A DNA stretch of 64,000 nucleotides from a virus (taxonomy: Duplodnaviria; Caudoviricetes). The notes below the pieces were generated by a model. It made no database searches, was not told the origin of the DNA, and saw only the letters and a list, made by a program, of their open reading frames with translations. Made by a program: the position numbers and the translations under genes. Location of the stretch: the IMG/VR virus record IMGVR_UViG_3300025133_000094, positions 1,182 to 65,181 of that record; one strand, given 5' to 3'. Shown in pieces: positions 1 to 63,352 of the stretch (positions within the stretch are counted from its first letter, which is position 1; the number at the start of each line of letters is the position of its first letter).

Positions 1-280
1 CTACCAATGGGAGGCTCTCCGCGACAATCTAATGTTACCTTTCCCTTTAGCCCAAGTCGGTCAGCACTTATCTACAGGATTCCAGGTGTAGAGCCTATTG
101 CAAATGTAGATATTTATCTTAACGGGGTTCTGTACTGGTTAACTTCGACACTGTGAATCGACCGCAATCGAAGAGGTAACAATAATATAAGTAGGGGTGG
201 GCAGCTGGAGTGCACAGTTAAATATAGAGAAGCAGCTAACCCACCCCGAAATATATTTATAGAAAATGGGAAGTTTTTAC

Positions 281-308
281 TTGACAAATCAAAAAAGTAT
301 GGTATAAT
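281..308 (+). promoter_or_regulatory. Host sigma70-type promoter upstream of the RNAP operon
   Basis: Perfect TTGACA (281-286), 16-nt spacer ending in TGn, perfect TATAAT (303-308); AT-rich upstream tract. Confidence 0.85.
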
Positions 309-407
309 ATACCTATGACTGATCCTGAACATGATCGAATGCCTTTAAGAATATGGCTAGTGATTATAATTTTAATTTTAATGTACATAAAAACCTGTGG
401 AGATGTA

Positions 408-713
408 ATGGGACTAGACTATAGAGAAGATGGTAGATTTATTAAAGAAGATGGCGAAGCCCGTAAGCCAAAGAACGATCCGCATAATCCTAAGAATCTA
501 ATGAGGAGACAAAGAGACAAGGAGGGGGATGGCTATAATCAAGCCAAAGAAGGGTGGAGTCCAACAGCGTGGAATGATAGCGGTGCTGGTAAGGGAGACG
601 CACCTAGACCACATGGTTGTTCGACAGAAGAGTGGGGATTGAAATATGATTTAGCTACCGGAAGAATAACTAAAGAAGAATTCGATAAAGGTATGGAGGA
701 ACTCAACTCTTGA
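408..713 (+). CDS. Hypothetical phage protein (an ATG at 315 would give a leaderless alternative start)
   Basis: ORF 315-713; GGAG precedes ATG 408; stop overlaps the RNAP start. Confidence 0.6.
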   Translation: MGLDYREDGRFIKEDGEARKPKNDPHNPKNLMRRQRDKEGDGYNQAKEGWSPTAWNDSGAGKGDAPRPHGCSTEEWGLKYDLATGRITKEEFDKGMEELNS

Positions 714-3151
714 AGTGGGCTAATGAAACAGATGTAACTAAGAGTAAAAGGCGGGGTGCTCAAGTAAAGTATGAAGAACAAGTACTTATGTATAGTCGTT
801 CTAAATATTGGGATGAATATAATAGAGCACCTGATGAGGGTGTTCCAGAACAAGAGCTTCTTGATTCTTCTGTTAAAGAATTAAGAGATACTTATCAAGA
901 GTGGATAGATAATGCCGTGTCTTCAACTAAGACACCGTCTTGGGTAAGACCTCTACTAGAATTGGGTGCATCTAAGATGGCCGATATAACTATACGAGCT
1001 GTCATGAGATGTTGGTTCTCTTCTAATTTCTGGGGACATACACTAGAAGATGATACTCATAACGCACCACTAGCTCAGACAGTTGCTAATTTAATAGCAC
1101 AAGATAGTTCAGATATAATATCTTATCAGAATGCTAAGAGTAATAACAAAAGCGATTGGATGAGTCAATCCAAGTTCATTAAAAACTGGACAGAGAAAAG
1201 ATGTAAAGCTTTTTCTAAAAAGATGGGCGAACATATTAAACTTGGTATAAAAGAGAAGCATAACTTTGGGCATAACATGTTACGTATAGCTGCGACTAGT
1301 AATATAATAAACATGGAGGTTCGCTCTGTTAGACGGGGTAGGTTATATAAGAAGTATAGCTTTGTAGAGTTTCATTCTTCTATACTATCTAAACTACACA
1401 ACAAACATGCGTTACTACAGACTAGTACTCTAGTCTATAGGCCTATGCTTACGCCTCCTGAATTACATACCGAAGCGTCTAGTGGTGGGTATATACACAG
1501 AGATATGCGTAAGCCTGTAGTACAGAGATATAAATCTAACTACTGGGGTGATGATATTAAGGATCAGAAGTTTTCTGTTCCATCTAGCTTAGTATTAGAT
1601 GGACTCAATGGTTTAATGTTAACTGAATGGGCTGTTAATGAGGATGTATTAGAAGTTATGACAAGCATGTTTGAAAATAATATGTGTGTTGCTAATCTTC
1701 CTGCCTATAATTTTGAAGAGTTTATGTATAATGTGGAGTATCCCTCTGATGGTACTAAAGTAGATAAAGCTATATGGTGTCAGCGTAGACAGGAAGCGTG
1801 GTCGGACTGGTATAGACAAGAACAATCTCGTGGACGTATGTTAATTAGATTACAATTAGCTAATGACCTTAAGAAGTGGGGGTATTTTTATCAAGTATAT
1901 ACTCTAGATTTTAGGGGACGGGCTTATACTATATGTGAACTGCTTAGTTGTCAGTCTTCTGACTTTGATAAAGGCTTAGTTAAGTTTGCTAATCCTGTAA
2001 AGCTTACAGCTAGAGGTCTTTGGTGGTTAAAGGTTAGCTTAGCTGGGCTCTTTGACCAAGACAAGGGCACACTCGAGTCTCGTGTTAAATGGGTTGATGA
2101 TAATTGGGATATGATAAAACGTATTAACGATAATCCTTATGAGAACTATGAGTGGATAGATCAACGAAAGAAAAAGAATAAATCTTTTCAAAGGTTAGCT
2201 GCTATAAAGAATATATGTAGAGAGGATGGCATGTCTTATTTACCAGTACAGTTAGATGGTAGGTGTAATGGTTCTCAGCATTGGTCTGCTATTATGGGAG
2301 ATCCTTTAATAGCTGAGAAAACTTGTGTCATTCCTTCAAAGAAACCTCAGGATTTATATCAGTTTGTTGCTGACTCAGTAACAGACTATTGTTTACTACA
2401 TAAAACCGAAAAAAAATGGTGCAAAATTTTTCTGGAACATTGGAATGGCTCTATAGATAGGGCTGTTGCTAAACGTCCTACTATGTGTGACCCATATGGT
2501 TTAACATTTTATGGAATACAAAAGTATTTAAAAGTAGAAGGTCACCTTGACTGGGTATCTAAAGATAAACAAGGGGGAGCTATAGTTGAATTAGCTAGAG
2601 CTATAAAGGCAAGCATGGATAAATGTTTAGCCGAACCTAACAGGGGTAAAGAATATTTAAAAGAGGTCGTTGGTATAGCCAATGATTTAAATAAACATAT
2701 AGAATATACTACCCCTTCTGGATTTAAGGTTGTTCATTATTACAACCAAGTTAATTCAAGAAGATCGGTAGCTAAGTTGTTTGGGAATAAGGAACTCTCT
2801 TTCTTTATACCAACTACAGACGTGAACAAACGGTCGGCACTACAAGCAATAGCGCCGAATTTTATTCACAGTTTGGATGCTGCTCACATGTTCCTAACAT
2901 TAGTTAGGTTGTTACATATGAGTGTGTTCAGTCTAAGTTTCATCCACGATTCTTATGGCTGTCATGCTAATTTTGTAGATGACATGAGAGATATACTCAG
3001 AGAGGAGTTCTTGAAAATTCATAATGATAATCCATTAGAAAATTTCAAGAAGGATGTACAGAATCAACTAGGTGTTATGCTACCTGAAGTACCCAAGCGT
3101 GGTGCTTTGATTATAGCTGACGTTTTAGATTCTGAATACTTCTTTGCATAA
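710..3151 (+). CDS. T7-like single-subunit DNA-dependent RNA polymerase (gp1-like)
   Basis: 813 aa; DFRGRAY, motif A QLDGRCNGSQH, motif B RAVAKRPTMCDPYG, APNFIHSLDAAH, motif C FIHDSYG; TTG start after GGAGGA. Confidence 0.98.
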   Translation: MKWANETDVTKSKRRGAQVKYEEQVLMYSRSKYWDEYNRAPDEGVPEQELLDSSVKELRDTYQEWIDNAVSSTKTPSWVRPLLELGASKMADITIRAVMRCWFSSNFWGHTLEDDTHNAPLAQTVANLIAQDSSDIISYQNAKSNNKSDWMSQSKFIKNWTEKRCKAFSKKMGEHIKLGIKEKHNFGHNMLRIAATSNIINMEVRSVRRGRLYKKYSFVEFHSSILSKLHNKHALLQTSTLVYRPMLTPPELHTEASSGGYIHRDMRKPVVQRYKSNYWGDDIKDQKFSVPSSLVLDGLNGLMLTEWAVNEDVLEVMTSMFENNMCVANLPAYNFEEFMYNVEYPSDGTKVDKAIWCQRRQEAWSDWYRQEQSRGRMLIRLQLANDLKKWGYFYQVYTLDFRGRAYTICELLSCQSSDFDKGLVKFANPVKLTARGLWWLKVSLAGLFDQDKGTLESRVKWVDDNWDMIKRINDNPYENYEWIDQRKKKNKSFQRLAAIKNICREDGMSYLPVQLDGRCNGSQHWSAIMGDPLIAEKTCVIPSKKPQDLYQFVADSVTDYCLLHKTEKKWCKIFLEHWNGSIDRAVAKRPTMCDPYGLTFYGIQKYLKVEGHLDWVSKDKQGGAIVELARAIKASMDKCLAEPNRGKEYLKEVVGIANDLNKHIEYTTPSGFKVVHYYNQVNSRRSVAKLFGNKELSFFIPTTDVNKRSALQAIAPNFIHSLDAAHMFLTLVRLLHMSVFSLSFIHDSYGCHANFVDDMRDILREEFLKIHNDNPLENFKKDVQNQLGVMLPEVPKRGALIIADVLDSEYFFA

Positions 3152-58446: not shown

Positions 58447-60294
58447 ATGAAATCAAAAGATATAAAGACCGCATCAGAGAATGTGGCATCAAAGCTAGCA
58501 TTACAGCGAGGACGCCTACGTTCTTTCTTGTTCCACAGAGGTGGAAAGAAAGTAACGGGCGTGGCTGTGGACCACCTCCTTGGTCTGACCGAGGAAGCAT
58601 TGTTCGACAACGGTATCGTCGTGGACAGTGACATGCTCAACGGAGCTGTCGCCCAAGGCGTTACTACAGCAACTCGTAAGATACTACATAAGAACCTATT
58701 GACCGAATCTTGGCAGGCTCGTCGTGACGGCAACGTCTCGACAAACCCTATCGAGTTGACGGGATACTGGAAACCGATCGTCTCACGACGTGACAACCTT
58801 AAGCTGCCCTCTGAGTATAAGGACTTTATGCAGTATCAAAGTAATATAGCAGTTCGTTACAACAAAGACATGGTGACTGCCCTAGTCGCATGGCAAGAGA
58901 AGTTTGGTCCTGATGACAAACTTGTTCTCTCTAAACGAGATCTTGAGACCATCAATAAGGTAGGGTACGTAGTTATCTACCAACCTTACTACATTGCATG
59001 TCGCGTTGCACGTATCTACCAAGGCACACAGGGTGCAGGTGGCTACACTAACGGCAAGGGGGTACGCTATAGTACTGAGTTCGCTGAAGGTCGAAAGGTT
59101 AATGGCAAGCAACAGGCACAATTTATGACTCACATAAAAGCTGAGTATAAGTATAAGAAGGCTCATTCAAAATTCTTAGGTGACAATACACTGGCTAACC
59201 GTACTGCGTTCTTACGTAAGTATGGTAACCCTGGTTTGTTACGTGCGTGTCTCGAGCTTATCTACATTGCTGAGACTAAGAAGTCAACGATGATTATCTG
59301 GCAAGACGTGCACACCTCATTAGTGTGTCATATCTATGCTATGTTGCGTCGTAAGAACTTACGCAGTATTGTAGACATTAACCATCCAAAGTGGTTCAAT
59401 CGTCATGATTACTACATGAACAACATGTTAAGTAGCTCTCTCGATAGCGCTCCTTTCTTTCGAGCATGTACTCCAGGACAACGTGCATTGTTTACTAAAC
59501 CATCCTTTGTACCGTTTGGTCACGGAGCTGGTGCTGACTCTTGTCGGTACTCTGTACTCAACACAGATGATATGCACTGGAATGCCGAAGCTCCAACGGA
59601 ATTGCGTGACACTATGAGCTTGAACGAATTGGTTGACGCCATACGTACAGGCACTAAGCAGGTCCGAATTCCTGAACAGTTCAAACTTGCTCTTCGAGCA
59701 GCTTGGCCTGGTTGGAGTAAGAAGAAAGCTATTACTGAAGATATGTACAAGGACAAACTTGTTATAATCTTTGATGATCTTAAGACTGTGTTCGCTGGTT
59801 CCTACAATCCATTAGTTCGGTTTAATAACCGTGCCGTATTGGTGAAAGAGGCATCAGATACTATAGGCAAGCTACCACCTTCATATACCAACAGGTTTGG
59901 AATGAAGCTCGTGCAAACGAGATGGAAGCGAGATCCTAACAGCTCACGCACTATTAAGAACAAAACCACTTTAGCTGGTGTTACTCCCACGCCATTGGAT
60001 GTTACCTTCGATAAGCGAGTCGCCTGCACAGGCAGCGAGTTCGCAGTCAGTATGCCTCACTATAAGGATGCTGAAATGAATGTCGGAATCGGTAATGAAT
60101 TCATCCAAGCTGATAAAGACTGCCTAAGTATCCACGATGCTTGGGGTGTACGGCTAGAAGACATGGACTTCTTAATTGAAGTCAGTGCCAGACAGTTTAG
60201 ATACACGCATGAAGAACCTATGCTTAATAGCATGGGGTATGAAGTGCCTGCAACTTTACCACACCTTGGTGATAAATTCCAAATCGTTCGTTAA
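58447..60294 (+). CDS. Divergent, short T7-family single-subunit polymerase (615 aa)
   Basis: Colinear motifs RVARIYQ (DxRGRxY-like), WQDVHTS (A, D287), RALFTKPSFVPFGHGAG (B), PHYKDA, LSIHDAWG (C, D564). Confidence 0.88.
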   Translation: MKSKDIKTASENVASKLALQRGRLRSFLFHRGGKKVTGVAVDHLLGLTEEALFDNGIVVDSDMLNGAVAQGVTTATRKILHKNLLTESWQARRDGNVSTNPIELTGYWKPIVSRRDNLKLPSEYKDFMQYQSNIAVRYNKDMVTALVAWQEKFGPDDKLVLSKRDLETINKVGYVVIYQPYYIACRVARIYQGTQGAGGYTNGKGVRYSTEFAEGRKVNGKQQAQFMTHIKAEYKYKKAHSKFLGDNTLANRTAFLRKYGNPGLLRACLELIYIAETKKSTMIIWQDVHTSLVCHIYAMLRRKNLRSIVDINHPKWFNRHDYYMNNMLSSSLDSAPFFRACTPGQRALFTKPSFVPFGHGAGADSCRYSVLNTDDMHWNAEAPTELRDTMSLNELVDAIRTGTKQVRIPEQFKLALRAAWPGWSKKKAITEDMYKDKLVIIFDDLKTVFAGSYNPLVRFNNRAVLVKEASDTIGKLPPSYTNRFGMKLVQTRWKRDPNSSRTIKNKTTLAGVTPTPLDVTFDKRVACTGSEFAVSMPHYKDAEMNVGIGNEFIQADKDCLSIHDAWGVRLEDMDFLIEVSARQFRYTHEEPMLNSMGYEVPATLPHLGDKFQIVR

Positions 60295-60307
60295 TAACTA
60301 GTACGGA

Positions 60308-60334
60308 GGGGGAGGCCATATGTTTGGTCTCCCC
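60308..60334 (+). other. GC-rich intergenic hairpin without U tract
   Basis: GGGGAGGCCA-TATGTT-TGGTCTCCCC. Confidence 0.6.
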
Positions 60335-60366
60335 TGATGTACGCAATCAGGAAAGGGATTTCTATT

Positions 60367-60942
60367 ATGACTAAAACAAAGAAATCAAAGTTACGCTGGG
60401 CCTCTCTTATATATCCAGCATCTATGGCTGATATATCAGGTCACTGTATTCTTGTCTTCGATACGGAACTTAAGAATTATACCATTAGGTTCCTTACCCA
60501 TGATCTTGACCCTAAGCACATGTATTACTCAGGTGTTACGGAAGAGGTAATTGGTGTAGACGGCAACAGTATTACTAAAGGTGAGATTGGTAATATATGT
60601 AATAGAATCGGCTTACGCTTGAAGCCTCGCTTAGAGATAAATACTTTCGATGTGAGTGAGTATTATACCTTACACTACGGTGATGAGGTGATTGCTACAC
60701 ACAAAGGAAATAAGATGTCTGTCTCTATTACTGGCAGAAGTACCGTTTACTTCGATGATGTAGGAGAGCCTATTGAAATCACAGTAAAAGGTAAACCTGC
60801 TGTTAGCTTAAAGGCAGCTCGTGCCTCATGGTGGAGCGAAGCAAAGAATTATCCAGCCATACACTGGAAGGGTGATTTAGCTGTGCTTTGCGTTGCTGAT
60901 GAGATCAACATCGATGTTGATGATGATGATGATGCTGCTTGA
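60367..60942 (+). CDS. Hypothetical beta-rich protein with acidic C-terminal tail (191 aa)
   Basis: Start moved to ATG 60367, which shares the ATTTCTATTATGA context with 58447; ends DVDDDDDAA. Confidence 0.75.
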   Translation: MTKTKKSKLRWASLIYPASMADISGHCILVFDTELKNYTIRFLTHDLDPKHMYYSGVTEEVIGVDGNSITKGEIGNICNRIGLRLKPRLEINTFDVSEYYTLHYGDEVIATHKGNKMSVSITGRSTVYFDDVGEPIEITVKGKPAVSLKAARASWWSEAKNYPAIHWKGDLAVLCVADEINIDVDDDDDAA

Positions 60943-60944
60943 TG

Positions 60945-61011
60945 ACTCGTCTGGGCGAGTATAAATAGAACCTAAGCCTAGAGCGTCCGACCCTACGGGG
61001 TCGGGGCGTTT
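60945..61011 (+). ncRNA. Pistol ribozyme, predicted cleavage between G61006 and C61007
   Basis: P1 ACTCG/CGAGT; loop TCTGGG pseudoknots with CCTAGA; ATAAATAG linker; TAAG..AGCG; P2 TCCGACCC-TACG-GGGTCGGG; P3 AAC/GTT. Confidence 0.92.
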
Positions 61012-61275
61012 CCCCTAAGTGGGCCTATCTACCATGATTTTTTATGAAGGGTGTACCCCGTTCAAGATACAGCCGTATAGGTGTGTAAGGGCTGTATCGC
61101 AATAGGTGGGTTAAGAGAACAAGGGTGGATATAATATAGGGTATACCTAGGTCTTAGGGTATACGTAAGTATAGCCAGGAGAACCCTAGGGTTCCAGTAC
61201 AGGGCAAGCCGGGGGACCTTAGGTCCGCGGCTTGCCCCATCAGCCAGAAATTATGGTCAAGTTCCCTGACTGGCA
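61012..61275 (+). other. Structured non-coding segment of stacked hairpins
   Basis: GATACAGCC/GGCTGTATC, GTATACC/GGTATAC, GAACCC/GGGTTC, GGGCAAGCCG..CGGCTTGCCC, GCCAG/CTGGC; no ORF. Confidence 0.6.
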
Positions 61276-61318
61276 GGTAACAGTATCATAATAATCACCC
61301 TATTAGAAGGAGAATATC

Positions 61319-61576
61319 ATGCCAAATGATAAACTTACCCCTAATGACGTGGCGAAAGCCGAAGCAGTCCTTAACGGCAAGGGTTTCACTACCGTAAAGC
61401 GGTACACAGACCCTGACACCATGGATTTCGATGAGCTGTGCTTCACTCTTAACAACAAGAGTGCTATCGCAGCAGCAACGAAGGCTATGAAACGTAAAGG
61501 TTGGACCTCGCATCCGTATCTTACACACATTAAAGCGTGTGAGGCGAAGCTAAAGTCCTTACTGGCTAACGGTTAA
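61319..61576 (+). CDS. Hypothetical protein (85 aa)
   Basis: AAGGAG RBS; followed by a hairpin. Confidence 0.8.
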   Translation: MPNDKLTPNDVAKAEAVLNGKGFTTVKRYTDPDTMDFDELCFTLNNKSAIAAATKAMKRKGWTSHPYLTHIKACEAKLKSLLANG

Positions 61577-61590
61577 AGCCCGCATTCAAC

Positions 61591-61629
61591 GGTCCCCCAG
61601 GCGGGGGGCCCTTATATGCTTGCTTTTTT
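61591..61629 (+). terminator. Possible intrinsic terminator
   Basis: GGTCCCCC-AGGC-GGGGGGCC followed by an interrupted T-rich tract. Confidence 0.5.
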
Positions 61630-61631
61630 CT

Positions 61632-62295
61632 AAGTAACAGCAACACCCTAAGCTTACAGGGGTGTAGCTCTTGAGCTATGCAAACTTCAGCAGCTCTCAG
61701 CTGATATCAAAGAGAGACAACCCACACTGGGACCCATCAACTGTGGTCGGGTGTGTACCCTGTTCAACAAAGGCGTTCGACAGGGCATGTTGTCATGGAC
61801 ATCCCATGTAACCCCGCTTTACTTATGTAATGACATGGCGAGGTGTCCGTGACAACATGAAAAACCAAGGTCGCTCCTTGGTCGGTGAGTTGGCACCTGA
61901 ATACCATCATGGTAATGCATTACTATGATGGGGCTAGAGGGCTTCACTCGTTCTAATAGAGTGACATCGATATCTAATAAACTAATGCACGACGGTGCAG
62001 TTCGTGGCTGAACAATCTCTTCAGTAAGGAGATAAGGCACACAGTAGACCATGGTGGTCTGACCAATGTACACAATGTATGAGGTCATCCTCGTGACTGA
62101 GGATAAGGTGGTAGGTGGTTGTAACAAATAATATTGCTCCTCTGCCCTGTAGGTAATAAAAGAATCCTACCGAACACAAACAACAACCTTGTGAGACATG
62201 CACGGAGGTGTGTAGTCCTAGGCTACCTAAACTAGATGCCCTCACATTGTAGTATAACCTCTCGTCTCGTCCACGATACGGACACAATATACTTA
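61632..62295 (+). ncRNA. Candidate large structured non-coding RNA, class not recognised
   Basis: About 660 nt with no credible ORF and at least 10 hairpins, several with G-U pairs that favour the + strand. Confidence 0.6.
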
Positions 62296-62307
62296 AGGAG
62301 GTATCAT

Positions 62308-62499
62308 ATGACGATACACACTACAGATTTCCCCAAAGAGGGAGACAAACCAGTACTTCAGTTCGTTACAGGCTTTACCTGTGACCACTGTGGTAGTACA
62401 GACGTAAAGGAAACAGGGCTACGTAAGAGTAGCTTTGGTCAGTGGTTAGTAACCAAGTGTGGTAACTGTGATGTTACTGTACTGTATAAGACAGAATAA
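62308..62499 (+). CDS. Zinc-ribbon protein
   Basis: TAAGGAGG then ATG 62308; CDHC...CGNC. Confidence 0.8.
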   Translation: MTIHTTDFPKEGDKPVLQFVTGFTCDHCGSTDVKETGLRKSSFGQWLVTKCGNCDVTVLYKTE

Positions 62500-62510
62500 G
62501 GAGATCATAT

Positions 62511-62774
62511 ATGTGTAGAAAAAATGTAATCCCTAACGGTATGAGATATGATTACCGAGAGGATCCTAATCTAAATGAGTTACAACTAGCTCATATCAGG
62601 GGAGAGATAAACCTATATGATTCTATTCCAGCTACTAAGCAGGACTGGTATCATGATAAGAAAGGTAACAACCACTATCCTATAGAGGGTACTAAGGTTG
62701 ATGCTAATCTGCCACCTATATATCTTCAATGGAAAGATGATTATAGAAAGCGGATAACTAATGCCAAAAGATAA
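62511..62774 (+). CDS. Hypothetical early protein
   Basis: TAAGGAG RBS, 87 aa. Confidence 0.75.
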   Translation: MCRKNVIPNGMRYDYREDPNLNELQLAHIRGEINLYDSIPATKQDWYHDKKGNNHYPIEGTKVDANLPPIYLQWKDDYRKRITNAKR

Positions 62775-62937
62775 GACACTGTCAAATCTGTTGGCATCTT
62801 ACTATAAACAAGCACAAGAACAAGGCTTGAATACTCGTGAGATAAATAACAACCTAAGTAATGTCAGCAACGTAGCTGATGTACGAAGGTTACTACGTAA
62901 ACTTGGAGATTCGTATGAACGAACAAGAAAGAAATGA
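62761..62937 (+). CDS. Hypothetical protein (58 aa, MPKDKTLSNLL...)
   Basis: Fills the gap and overlaps both neighbours; below the ORF-track cutoff. Confidence 0.6.
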   Translation: MPKDKTLSNLLASYYKQAQEQGLNTREINNNLSNVSNVADVRRLLRKLGDSYERTRKK

Positions 62938-63352
62938 AATGCTTGAATTATTACATGCATTAAAGAATAGCATGGATGATTTAAAGAACGATGATGACGC
63001 TACCTTAGATGGTGCTGTCTCCATTAATATAGATGGAGAGCTTTGCATTGAGGGTCATGATGGTTTCGGAAATTGTGGCGCTTTGCGTATCACTGTTGCT
63101 GATGATGATAGTTATAGTGTAACTTTAGAAGGTGGCTTCAGAAAAGGCAAACGTTTTGAGACTAATATATTCCTTGGAAATATTAAGGATGTTGTAGAGG
63201 CTGCTGTGGTTCTATCGCAAGCGGGGTGGGATTACTGTGGTATAGATAAAGAACTTATCAAGGGTGCTATCCGACAAGGTTGGCGTGACCCTATCGAAAT
63301 TCGTGCTTTTATTACAGACCAAATGATTGCACACTCGGCAGAAATGGAGTAA
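62915..63352 (+). CDS. Hypothetical acidic protein
   Basis: GGAG then ATG 62915. Confidence 0.75.
   Translation: MNEQERNEMLELLHALKNSMDDLKNDDDATLDGAVSINIDGELCIEGHDGFGNCGALRITVADDDSYSVTLEGGFRKGKRFETNIFLGNIKDVVEAAVVLSQAGWDYCGIDKELIKGAIRQGWRDPIEIRAFITDQMIAHSAEME

Follow-up and report, generated by a model that had tools for sequence, protein, structure and literature searches.

The stretch considered here is about 660 nt of non-coding DNA (61632-62295) near the 3' end of a 64,000-nt window, the whole piece of phage DNA that was analysed, which corresponds to bases 1182-65181 of a 65,181-bp virus record with an estimated completeness of 96%. It lies 3' of the late gene block, between a small open reading frame (ORF; 61319-61576, 85 aa) and a run of small genes that extends from 62308 to the end of the contig; the long ORFs are all on the + strand. 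A reading made from the sequence alone (the sequence-only reading below) had proposed a novel large non-coding RNA, in the sense of GOLLD or ROOL. The stretch was instead found to contain a full-length RNA of the known manA family, and with a probability of roughly 60% it is a mosaic non-coding + strand stretch between the terminated small ORF and the early-side block, built around an autonomous manA, and not one RNA gene of a new class. Its features are listed below, with folding z-scores computed, here and throughout, against dinucleotide shuffles.

61578-61633 (+): terminator-like two-tier hairpin followed by a U-run (...GCUUGCUUUUUUCUAA), -24 kcal/mol, z -2.79
61634-61975 (+): orphan hairpin array of 342 nt, ~8 predicted hairpins inside a long-range closing stem, z -7.45
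61758-61785: CCCTG.../...CAGGG stem
61786-61859 (+): longest hairpin, arms 61786-61801 and 61844-61859, extending by eye to 18 + 6 pairs with a 3-nt bulge
61864-61882 (+): ACCAAGG/CCTTGGT hairpin, z -4.26
61904-61931 (+): 14+14 near-perfect palindrome without spacer; in RNA form 12 pairs, a 4-nt loop and one G.U, z -5.89
61944-61964: TCACTC/GAGTGA stem
61976-61985 (+): junction word (AATAAACTAA), kept directly 5' of manA in most relatives
61986-62180 (+): manA RNA (RF01745), full length (model 1-192 of 192), 69.2 bits against a gathering score of 55.2, E = 1.6e-15
62181-62287 (+): spacer module S1, not notably structured, apparently exchanged recently between lineages
62288-62307 (+): conserved ribosome-binding region (AATATACTTAAGGAGGTATCAT) of the first early-side gene, 92-95% matches
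62308-62499 (+): first gene after the non-coding stretch, a 63-aa protein with two CxxC pairs (zinc-ribbon-like, by eye)

The proposed scan against Rfam recovered manA over 195 nt, so that the region can no longer be called unrecognised, and no other family was found in the array. The AGACCA/TGGTCT, ATCCTC/GAGGAT and GGTAGG/CCTACC stems are helices of manA; every stem that had been listed from the sequence was present, within 2 nt of its reported place. In an alignment of 13 sequences of the clade, 24 of 52 predicted pairs carried changes on both sides that preserved pairing (RNAalifold predicted neither the outer P8 helix region nor the pseudoknot, and both are therefore uncounted in the 52). 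The identity of manA in the relatives was 80-94%; it scored above the cut-off in ten of the 11 sources of one scan, the miss being the window's own contig start, and likewise in G006, G007 and G008 (3/3). The accessible part of Weinberg et al. (2010; PMC2864571) describes manA as a riboswitch candidate in 5' untranslated regions (UTRs) and places it in T4-like cyanophages, marine metagenomes and two gamma-proteobacteria. The present copy resembles the motif in its full model match, its helices and conserved words, its covariation within the clade and its marine, phage-borne location 5' of a gene. It differs in its carrier, a phage with a T7-type polymerase, where that part of the literature names T4-like cyanophages and gamma-proteobacteria, in a position relative to genes that is not fixed in this clade, and in the loss of loop complementarities of the consensus. 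The portions of the literature that were searched make no mention of manA in phages with a T7-type polymerase, and the published supplements may differ. The conserved part of the stretch is a further member of the known manA family in a new carrier and context, and the stretch does not amount to a new large RNA class.

The phage origin of the DNA was borne out. The window encodes a T7-type single-subunit RNA polymerase (710-3151, 813 aa; PF00940, 260.7 bits), a T7-type primase-helicase, DNA polymerase A, ribonucleotide reductase, a portal protein and a T7-type terminase. Since this polymerase is just 25-29% identical to its best match among GenBank phages and DNA of the phage occurs in marine metagenome runs (24 runs listed), the carrier is assigned to an uncultured marine phage lineage of ~65-68 kb with a T7-type polymerase. 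The G+C content is ~0.45-0.50 in 61400-62400, compared with ~0.36-0.38 in the downstream genes (62400-63200) and in much of the late block.

Relatives were collected in three sets: 14 loci found via the polymerase, four of which held manA, all from one phage (G005, whose polymerase is 63% identical to that of the window); 61 viral stretches found in IMG/VR with the manA word pattern GTGGCTGAA-(15-35 nt)-TAAGGCACA; and 14 stretches of metagenome contigs found with a clade-specific manA word. Searches with blastn of manA alone and of 60900-62400 against GenBank phages gave no match, nor did a search of the region against the first 16 fetched loci. In the second set, four of 15 scanned sources reached the cut-off; the IMG/VR loci L054-L110 suggest, by their sequence, wider manA-like relatives that are not filed in the family, and L074 carries (at ~11652) a below-threshold manA copy inside a tRNA array beside a transfer-messenger RNA (tmRNA).

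The ends of the conserved RNA are sharp. In L104 (G006), L118, L127 and L131, which share 93-94% of manA and 88-95% of the first gene, the matches begin at 61976-61980, and all blastn matches of relatives across the 5' boundary begin between 61970 and 61987; matches to manA alone end at 62177-62180, contig-truncated ones aside, and L120 continues through S1 to 62295. In the window 127 nt separate manA from a start codon, and its distance to the next start codon elsewhere ranges from ~60 nt (G007) to ~740 nt (G005), the intervening sequence being non-homologous; in L130 and L122 the zinc-ribbon gene, which in the window follows manA, comes first, with manA starting 1 nt past its stop codon. Because the surroundings are swapped and the gene order varies, manA is read as a sharply bounded movable module and not as an aptamer tied to a platform.

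Exchange is evident on the 3' side. Positions 62176-62287 are identical to L120 at 112 of 113 aligned positions, though the adjoining manA matches at 155 of 192; conversely, S1 is unrelated in L127 and L114 (45 of 119-135) though their manA is identical at 178 of 190-191. The stretch after manA is replaced by unrelated modules in L114, L118, L127, L112 and L113, and matches resume at the ribosome-binding region, beginning at 62291-62296 in L104, L118, L127, L131, L122 and L130. The gene that follows reaches 95% nucleotide identity in relatives; its 63-aa product has no Pfam family and a weak match to phrog_17723 (E 7e-4). On the 5' side, pieces of 30-137 nt that are 94-97% identical recur in the relatives' leaders at differing distances from manA (for example -377..-293 in L114 and -335..-251 in L118, or -147..-11 in L112 and -359..-223 in L113), and a 222-nt insert in G007 is missing from G008.

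Further structured elements were seen beside manA in the relatives. A three-hairpin module of ~90 nt, which is not in the window, lies directly 3' of manA (in L120, 3' of S1) in at least five relatives (L114 1690-1800, L118 5066-5176, L127 2189-2299 on the - strand, L130 1873-1983 and L120 4232-4345), with compensatory changes at two of 19 predicted pairs. The relatives also carry tRNAs, and tRNA-like pieces near manA (L002 3055-3795 of G005; L118 5728-5809), among them 82-nt matches confined to the tRNA-like ends of tmRNA at L002:3166-3247 (51 bits) and in L118 (45.6 bits, below the cut-off of 47). T-arm-like hairpins and a ~70-nt element present twice (L002 2785-2855 and 3550-3618) were noted by eye near manA.

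The array between terminator and manA was predicted to be strongly folded. No frame of at least 30 aa in the stretch has a ribosome-binding site or a relative, in agreement with its description as non-coding, and the suspicion of structure beyond chance was confirmed: the + strand of 61634-61975 gave z -7.45 and was equalled by none of 100 shuffles; 20 control windows (340 nt each, coding DNA of the same genome) averaged z -0.59 (sd 1.20, minimum -3.36). Single hairpins gave z -2.3 to -6.6; the longest, with 24 pairs including two U.G by eye, reached -35.8 kcal/mol and z -6.62 (0/200 shuffles as good). As had been proposed, structure at the RNA level is favoured on the + strand, where 61621-62307 folded with z -5.11 compared with -2.99 on the - strand. 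The G-U-compatible mismatches that had been cited as a sign of selection on the RNA were found in part: by eye, the mismatches in three of the four largest stems (61786-61859, 61904-61931 and 61758-61785) comprise four G.U on the + strand and no A.C, but the 61636-61672 and 61758-61785 stems also contain three non-wobble mismatches. These observations favour a + strand, RNA-level reading of the stems.

The array has almost no counterpart elsewhere. Across 129 fetched loci (1,149,552 bases) no homolog was found except one 17-nt hairpin. Five relatives searched over their whole records (two being 100% complete) had none either, the terminator alone being matched, in G007. Three exact array seeds gave no match in IMG/VR; the window holds no second copy of the array, 61634-62307 has no internal repeats besides the palindrome, and 61634-61975 contains no Rfam family and no tRNA-like gene. 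This is not for want of relatives, because both flanks are conserved: L120 and L123 match 61031-61633 at 72-75% and 61978-62295 at 82-88% (the L123 match stopping at 62177, close to its contig end), and the 345-394 nt in between are unalignable. The terminator, which closes the 85-aa ORF, is the last conserved stretch before the variable part; its stem shows paired changes in the alignment with L120 and L123 (GGTCCCCC/GGGGGGCC versus GGCTCCC/GGGAGCC), and it is weakly matched in G007. It was omitted by a scan for consensus terminators because the U-run is not immediately behind the inner stem. The ORF itself has no significant similarity to its counterpart in G005.

Structure, unlike sequence, persists at this position. 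For the 340 nt 5' of manA in 11 leaders, the + strand gave z -3.7 or lower in nine, the exceptions being L112 (z -2.4) and L130 (z -1.4; a gene occupies that position), and the + strand had the lower free energy in 11/11 and the lower z in 10/11; several of the leaders have modules in common, so they represent fewer than 11 independent cases. The structuredness of the leader is kept though its sequence is not. Judged from these comparisons, the stretch appears to consist of three independently evolving pieces: a private array of 342 nt, manA as the sole conserved RNA family and a recently swapped spacer of 107 nt. The array is an unconserved, strongly folded and apparently exchangeable run of hairpins with a putative role.

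If the stretch is such a mosaic around manA, transcription of its + strand would read through the upstream terminator or start at a promoter that was not recognised. manA would fold alone as an autonomous module, may multimerise by analogy with other manA RNAs in vitro, and would be no classical riboswitch for the next gene. The array hairpins may work as RNA, in stabilisation or in processing, and the one with 24 bp is as large as an RNase III substrate. They could be exchangeable cassettes that recombination at short junction words swaps between related phages; two such words, GGACACAATATACTT and TAATAAACTAATGC, are not motifs found genome-wide. Several observations count against this interpretation. 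A terminator lies directly upstream of the stretch, and no sigma-70-type promoter of quality was found in 61621-62307 or in a relative's leader, although a perfect site of this type, at 281-309, serves as an example from the same genome. The array folds beyond chance on its - strand too (z -4.68), and a palindrome without a spacer, such as that at 61904-61931, is commoner at DNA sites. The array has no homolog in which its hairpins could show covariation, and the strand, the ends and the processing of the RNA are predicted ones. Finally, the consensus loop pairs UGGU/ACCA and ACUGU/ACAGU (in our own mapping the L5-L7' and L8-L9' contacts of the preprint cited below) are not kept in the manA of this clade; their counterparts here, by the same mapping, are AUGGUG/GUGACU and non-complementary A-rich loops.

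The array and manA might together form one enlarged manA-type RNA of ~550-670 nt, in which the array would be a lineage-specific peripheral 5' domain and the manA core would assemble and carry that variable domain along, comparable to the poorly conserved 5' half of GOLLD. The two are contiguous, on the same strand and both strongly structured; the minimum free-energy (MFE) fold closes the array by a long-range stem just 5' of manA, and the array holds a hairpin with a ROOL-type apex. The idea of one conserved RNA of ~660 nt is contradicted by the relatives, in which the manA part alone is conserved: those with manA 93-94% identical have unrelated sequence in place of 61634-61975, of ~210 to 740 nt. 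The single hairpin that is shared lies downstream of manA in G005, a protein gene abuts the 5' side of manA in L130, the region holds a single manA core at E up to 5, none being found within the array, and no terminator follows manA in the window. One enlarged RNA is therefore considered improbable.

The comparison with ROOL and GOLLD stands in one respect. Oligomers made of RNA alone were obtained in vitro from five manA RNAs, according to the accessible part of a 2026 preprint (10.64898/2026.07.01.735769): a 60-mer cage, decamers and octamers, in which kissing loops hold the copies together and the interfaces differ between members. The manA core thus belongs to a family reported to build RNA-only cages, like ROOL and GOLLD, but neither of these was matched here. 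The ROOL model (RF03087) matched nowhere in the 65,181-bp record at E up to 10 (two candidates scored) and nowhere in 60300-62500 at E up to 5. The accessible text on ROOL (Kretsch et al., 2025; PMC12286853) invites comparison, as the region is likewise phage-borne, ornate and of similar length; it differs in that the ROOL covariance model does not match here and nothing beyond one hairpin can be aligned. The same source describes GOLLD as a large phage RNA whose 3' part is conserved and whose 5' part varies, which recalls the layout of array and manA; here, however, there is no Rfam match to GOLLD and the variable part is replaced by unrelated modules, not merely diverged. ROOL and GOLLD occur beside tRNA genes, and the window has none: ARAGORN found no tRNA or tmRNA gene in the 64 kb, and with no tRNA-like gene in the window no meaning could be confirmed for the words that had been called T-loop-like. 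The region is not ROOL.

The hairpin at 61864-61882 is the sole part of the array found in another phage. It has 7 bp, the loop UCGCU and the apex GGUCGCUCC (CCAAGG-UCGCU-CCUUGG at 61865-81), and the same 17-nt word with one loop change occurs in G005 (L002:3104-3120), 50 nt downstream of manA. Its apex, loop and closing pairs equal those of a conserved ROOL hairpin (consensus 'agGGUcGCUCCcu', conserved apex GGUcGCUCC; example L052), a likeness that comprises 9 nt plus the stem. The word was found in 36 stretches of IMG/VR, close to chance expectation by our own estimate; apart from the G005 phage and from two ROOL RNAs, these were mostly unrelated contexts, coding or other. On this sequence likeness, a hairpin module that phage ornate RNAs may share is offered as a lead. 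A variant, A61867G, would retain the pair as G.U; it was seen in one contig of run X7 at a depth of 2.6 and is possibly an error. A copy of the word in L023, L024 and L043, in an intergenic hairpin before a pstS-like gene, was dropped since its context is ambiguous, and a 4-bp pairing, seen by eye, of the UCGC loop with GCGA in the bulge of the long hairpin, or with the P1 loop of manA, was too short to count.

In T7-type genomes the junction of late and early genes holds the genome ends and ~1 kb of non-coding DNA, and T7-type phages have a left-end non-coding region and an early leader with RNase III processing hairpins. The stretch could accordingly be a DNA-level element: it might mark the physical end of the genome or a terminal repeat, serve in packaging or replication, or supply DNA-hairpin promoters like those of N4. 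It resembles a T7-type left end in having ~0.7-1.4 kb of non-coding DNA at the late/early-side junction of a genome with the RNA polymerase, primase-helicase, DNA polymerase A, portal and terminase genes named above, with long hairpins before the first gene; it differs in that no strong host promoters were seen and no terminal repeat was located, and we know of no manA in T7. The spacerless palindrome, the good folding of the - strand and the lack of a recognisable host-type promoter would suit such an element, as would a gene for a divergent short T7-type polymerase-like protein 1.3 kb upstream: in the accessible part of PMC4496689, the virion RNA polymerase (vRNAP) of N4 is described as using extruded DNA hairpins at early promoters, and here, too, hairpins upstream of early genes lie beside a gene for a divergent T7-family polymerase. 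The N4 promoters, however, are alike in a stem of 5-7 bp with conserved bases and in a loop of 3 nt, whereas the stems here vary in length and loop, no two array hairpins are alike and no repeated hairpin consensus was found. The wobble-type mismatches all favour + strand RNA, and the + strand is the more stable in 11/11 leaders. Nothing places a terminus here either: the 127-nt end repeat of G006, 4.8 kb away from the array, has the size of an assembler overlap and is therefore uninformative on physical genome ends, the ends of G000 do not overlap, and contigs of runs X6, X7, X9 and X10, which are same-strain fragments with one difference that leave parts of the stretch uncovered, cannot reveal the ends of the molecule. 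No phage promoter was found as a repeated intergenic motif. A role at the DNA level is accordingly regarded as doubtful.

The sequence-only reading had linked the stretch to a nearby odd polymerase.

58447-60294 (+): divergent T7-type RNA-polymerase-like protein, 615 aa, 1.3 kb upstream of the stretch

The protein has no Pfam or PHROG match of note, and a sequence search of the PDB gave no match. A language-model look-up placed it among clusters of T7-type polymerases (score 0.96, 211/256 features). A profile search returned 15 proteins, and of ten more distant ones that were scanned three match PF00940, two above the cut-off; hhalign to one of these relatives gave a probability of 90% (E 1.6e-6, 303 columns) and set the invariant D287 on the 'QDATCSGFQH' motif, and 'IHDAWG' (D564) aligns with 'IHDSYG' of the phage's own polymerase. 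Relatives of 570-620 aa occur in metagenomes; searches of IMG/VR with peptide patterns found none. The AlphaFold model (mean pLDDT 38.9) was unusable, and a 654-aa ORF at the same place in L104, considered as a counterpart, is unrelated. From the cluster look-up, the PF00940 relatives, the hhalign result and the retention of both residues, the protein is taken to be a divergent, short second polymerase-like protein beside the canonical 813-aa enzyme, with both putative catalytic aspartates (D287 and D564) kept. The odd polymerase is thus real, but its presence is not coupled to manA or to such leaders: it is absent from the manA-bearing G006 (100% complete) and G007 (98%), whose leaders are equally hairpin-rich, present in the manA-less G001 and weakly present in G005. 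The suggested roles of the stretch as a template or a decoy are supported by nothing that was found.

A classical riboswitch leader, in which manA would sense a metabolite and control the zinc-ribbon gene via a platform in 62181-62307, the upstream hairpins being incidental, is quite unlikely: it accords with the original proposal of manA as a 5' UTR riboswitch candidate (in the accessible part of PMC2864571), with the position of manA 127 nt before a start codon and with an MFE fold that pairs the Shine-Dalgarno region with upstream sequence, but the putative expression platform (62176-62310) folds no better than shuffles (z -0.41) and is replaced by 60 to ~740 nt of unrelated sequence in relatives, manA follows the gene in L130 and L122, and the family is without a known ligand.

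The mosaic reading admits a more far-reaching version, which is put forward as a long shot: the array would hold exchangeable structured-RNA cassettes tethered to a self-assembling manA core, with the hairpins serving as multivalent decoys or sponges, whether for nucleases of the host, for defence sensors that bind RNA or for the second polymerase of the phage itself. If this were true, transcripts would join through manA and display or enclose fast-turning-over hairpins, including the one with the ROOL-type loop, and the replacement of hairpins between close relatives would reflect an arms race rather than neutrality.

Other elements were noted elsewhere in the window. The non-coding DNA 5' of the 85-aa ORF (61031-61318) is conserved with L120 in blocks such as GCCCCATCAGCCAGAAATTATG, and a promoter-like CTGACT-18-AATAAT site at 61266-61295 (+) is conserved with the L120 region. 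A Pistol self-cleaving ribozyme (RF02679, 60945-61011, +; 66.1 bits against a cut-off of 34.5) begins 2 nt beyond the stop codon of a 201-aa ORF, the last of the late block; L120 has a Pistol at the same place (43.5 bits), and in other marine contigs the similarity is confined to the ribozyme and the sequence beyond is divergent. A type II hammerhead ribozyme (RF02276, 57966-58036, +; 51.5 bits against a cut-off of 37) lies within a G+C-rich non-coding stretch 3' of a 5183-aa ORF, one of two neighbouring giant ORFs (2481 and 5183 aa; 34471-57467, +) with no Pfam and a single weak PHROG match. At the other end of the window, a perfect TTGACA-17-TATAAT promoter (281-309, +) lies just 5' of an ORF at 315 and of the polymerase gene; it is preceded by ~550 nt of G+C-rich, structured-looking non-coding DNA (G000 ~945-1495, that is L117 plus window 1-314), in which Rfam gave no match at E 0.05 in L117 and none at gathering scores in window 1-314.

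The finding extends manA to an uncultured lineage of phages that have a T7-type polymerase, where the locus and its ~15 relatives amount to a natural experiment on manA use: the RNA keeps its sequence while its surroundings are swapped, and it sits before or after the same gene. A manA that is bounded, autonomous and freely placed argues against a riboswitch and for a role as a stand-alone RNA. The structuredness of the leader without conservation of its sequence, together with the hairpin shared with ROOL, could link the cage-forming RNAs of phages.

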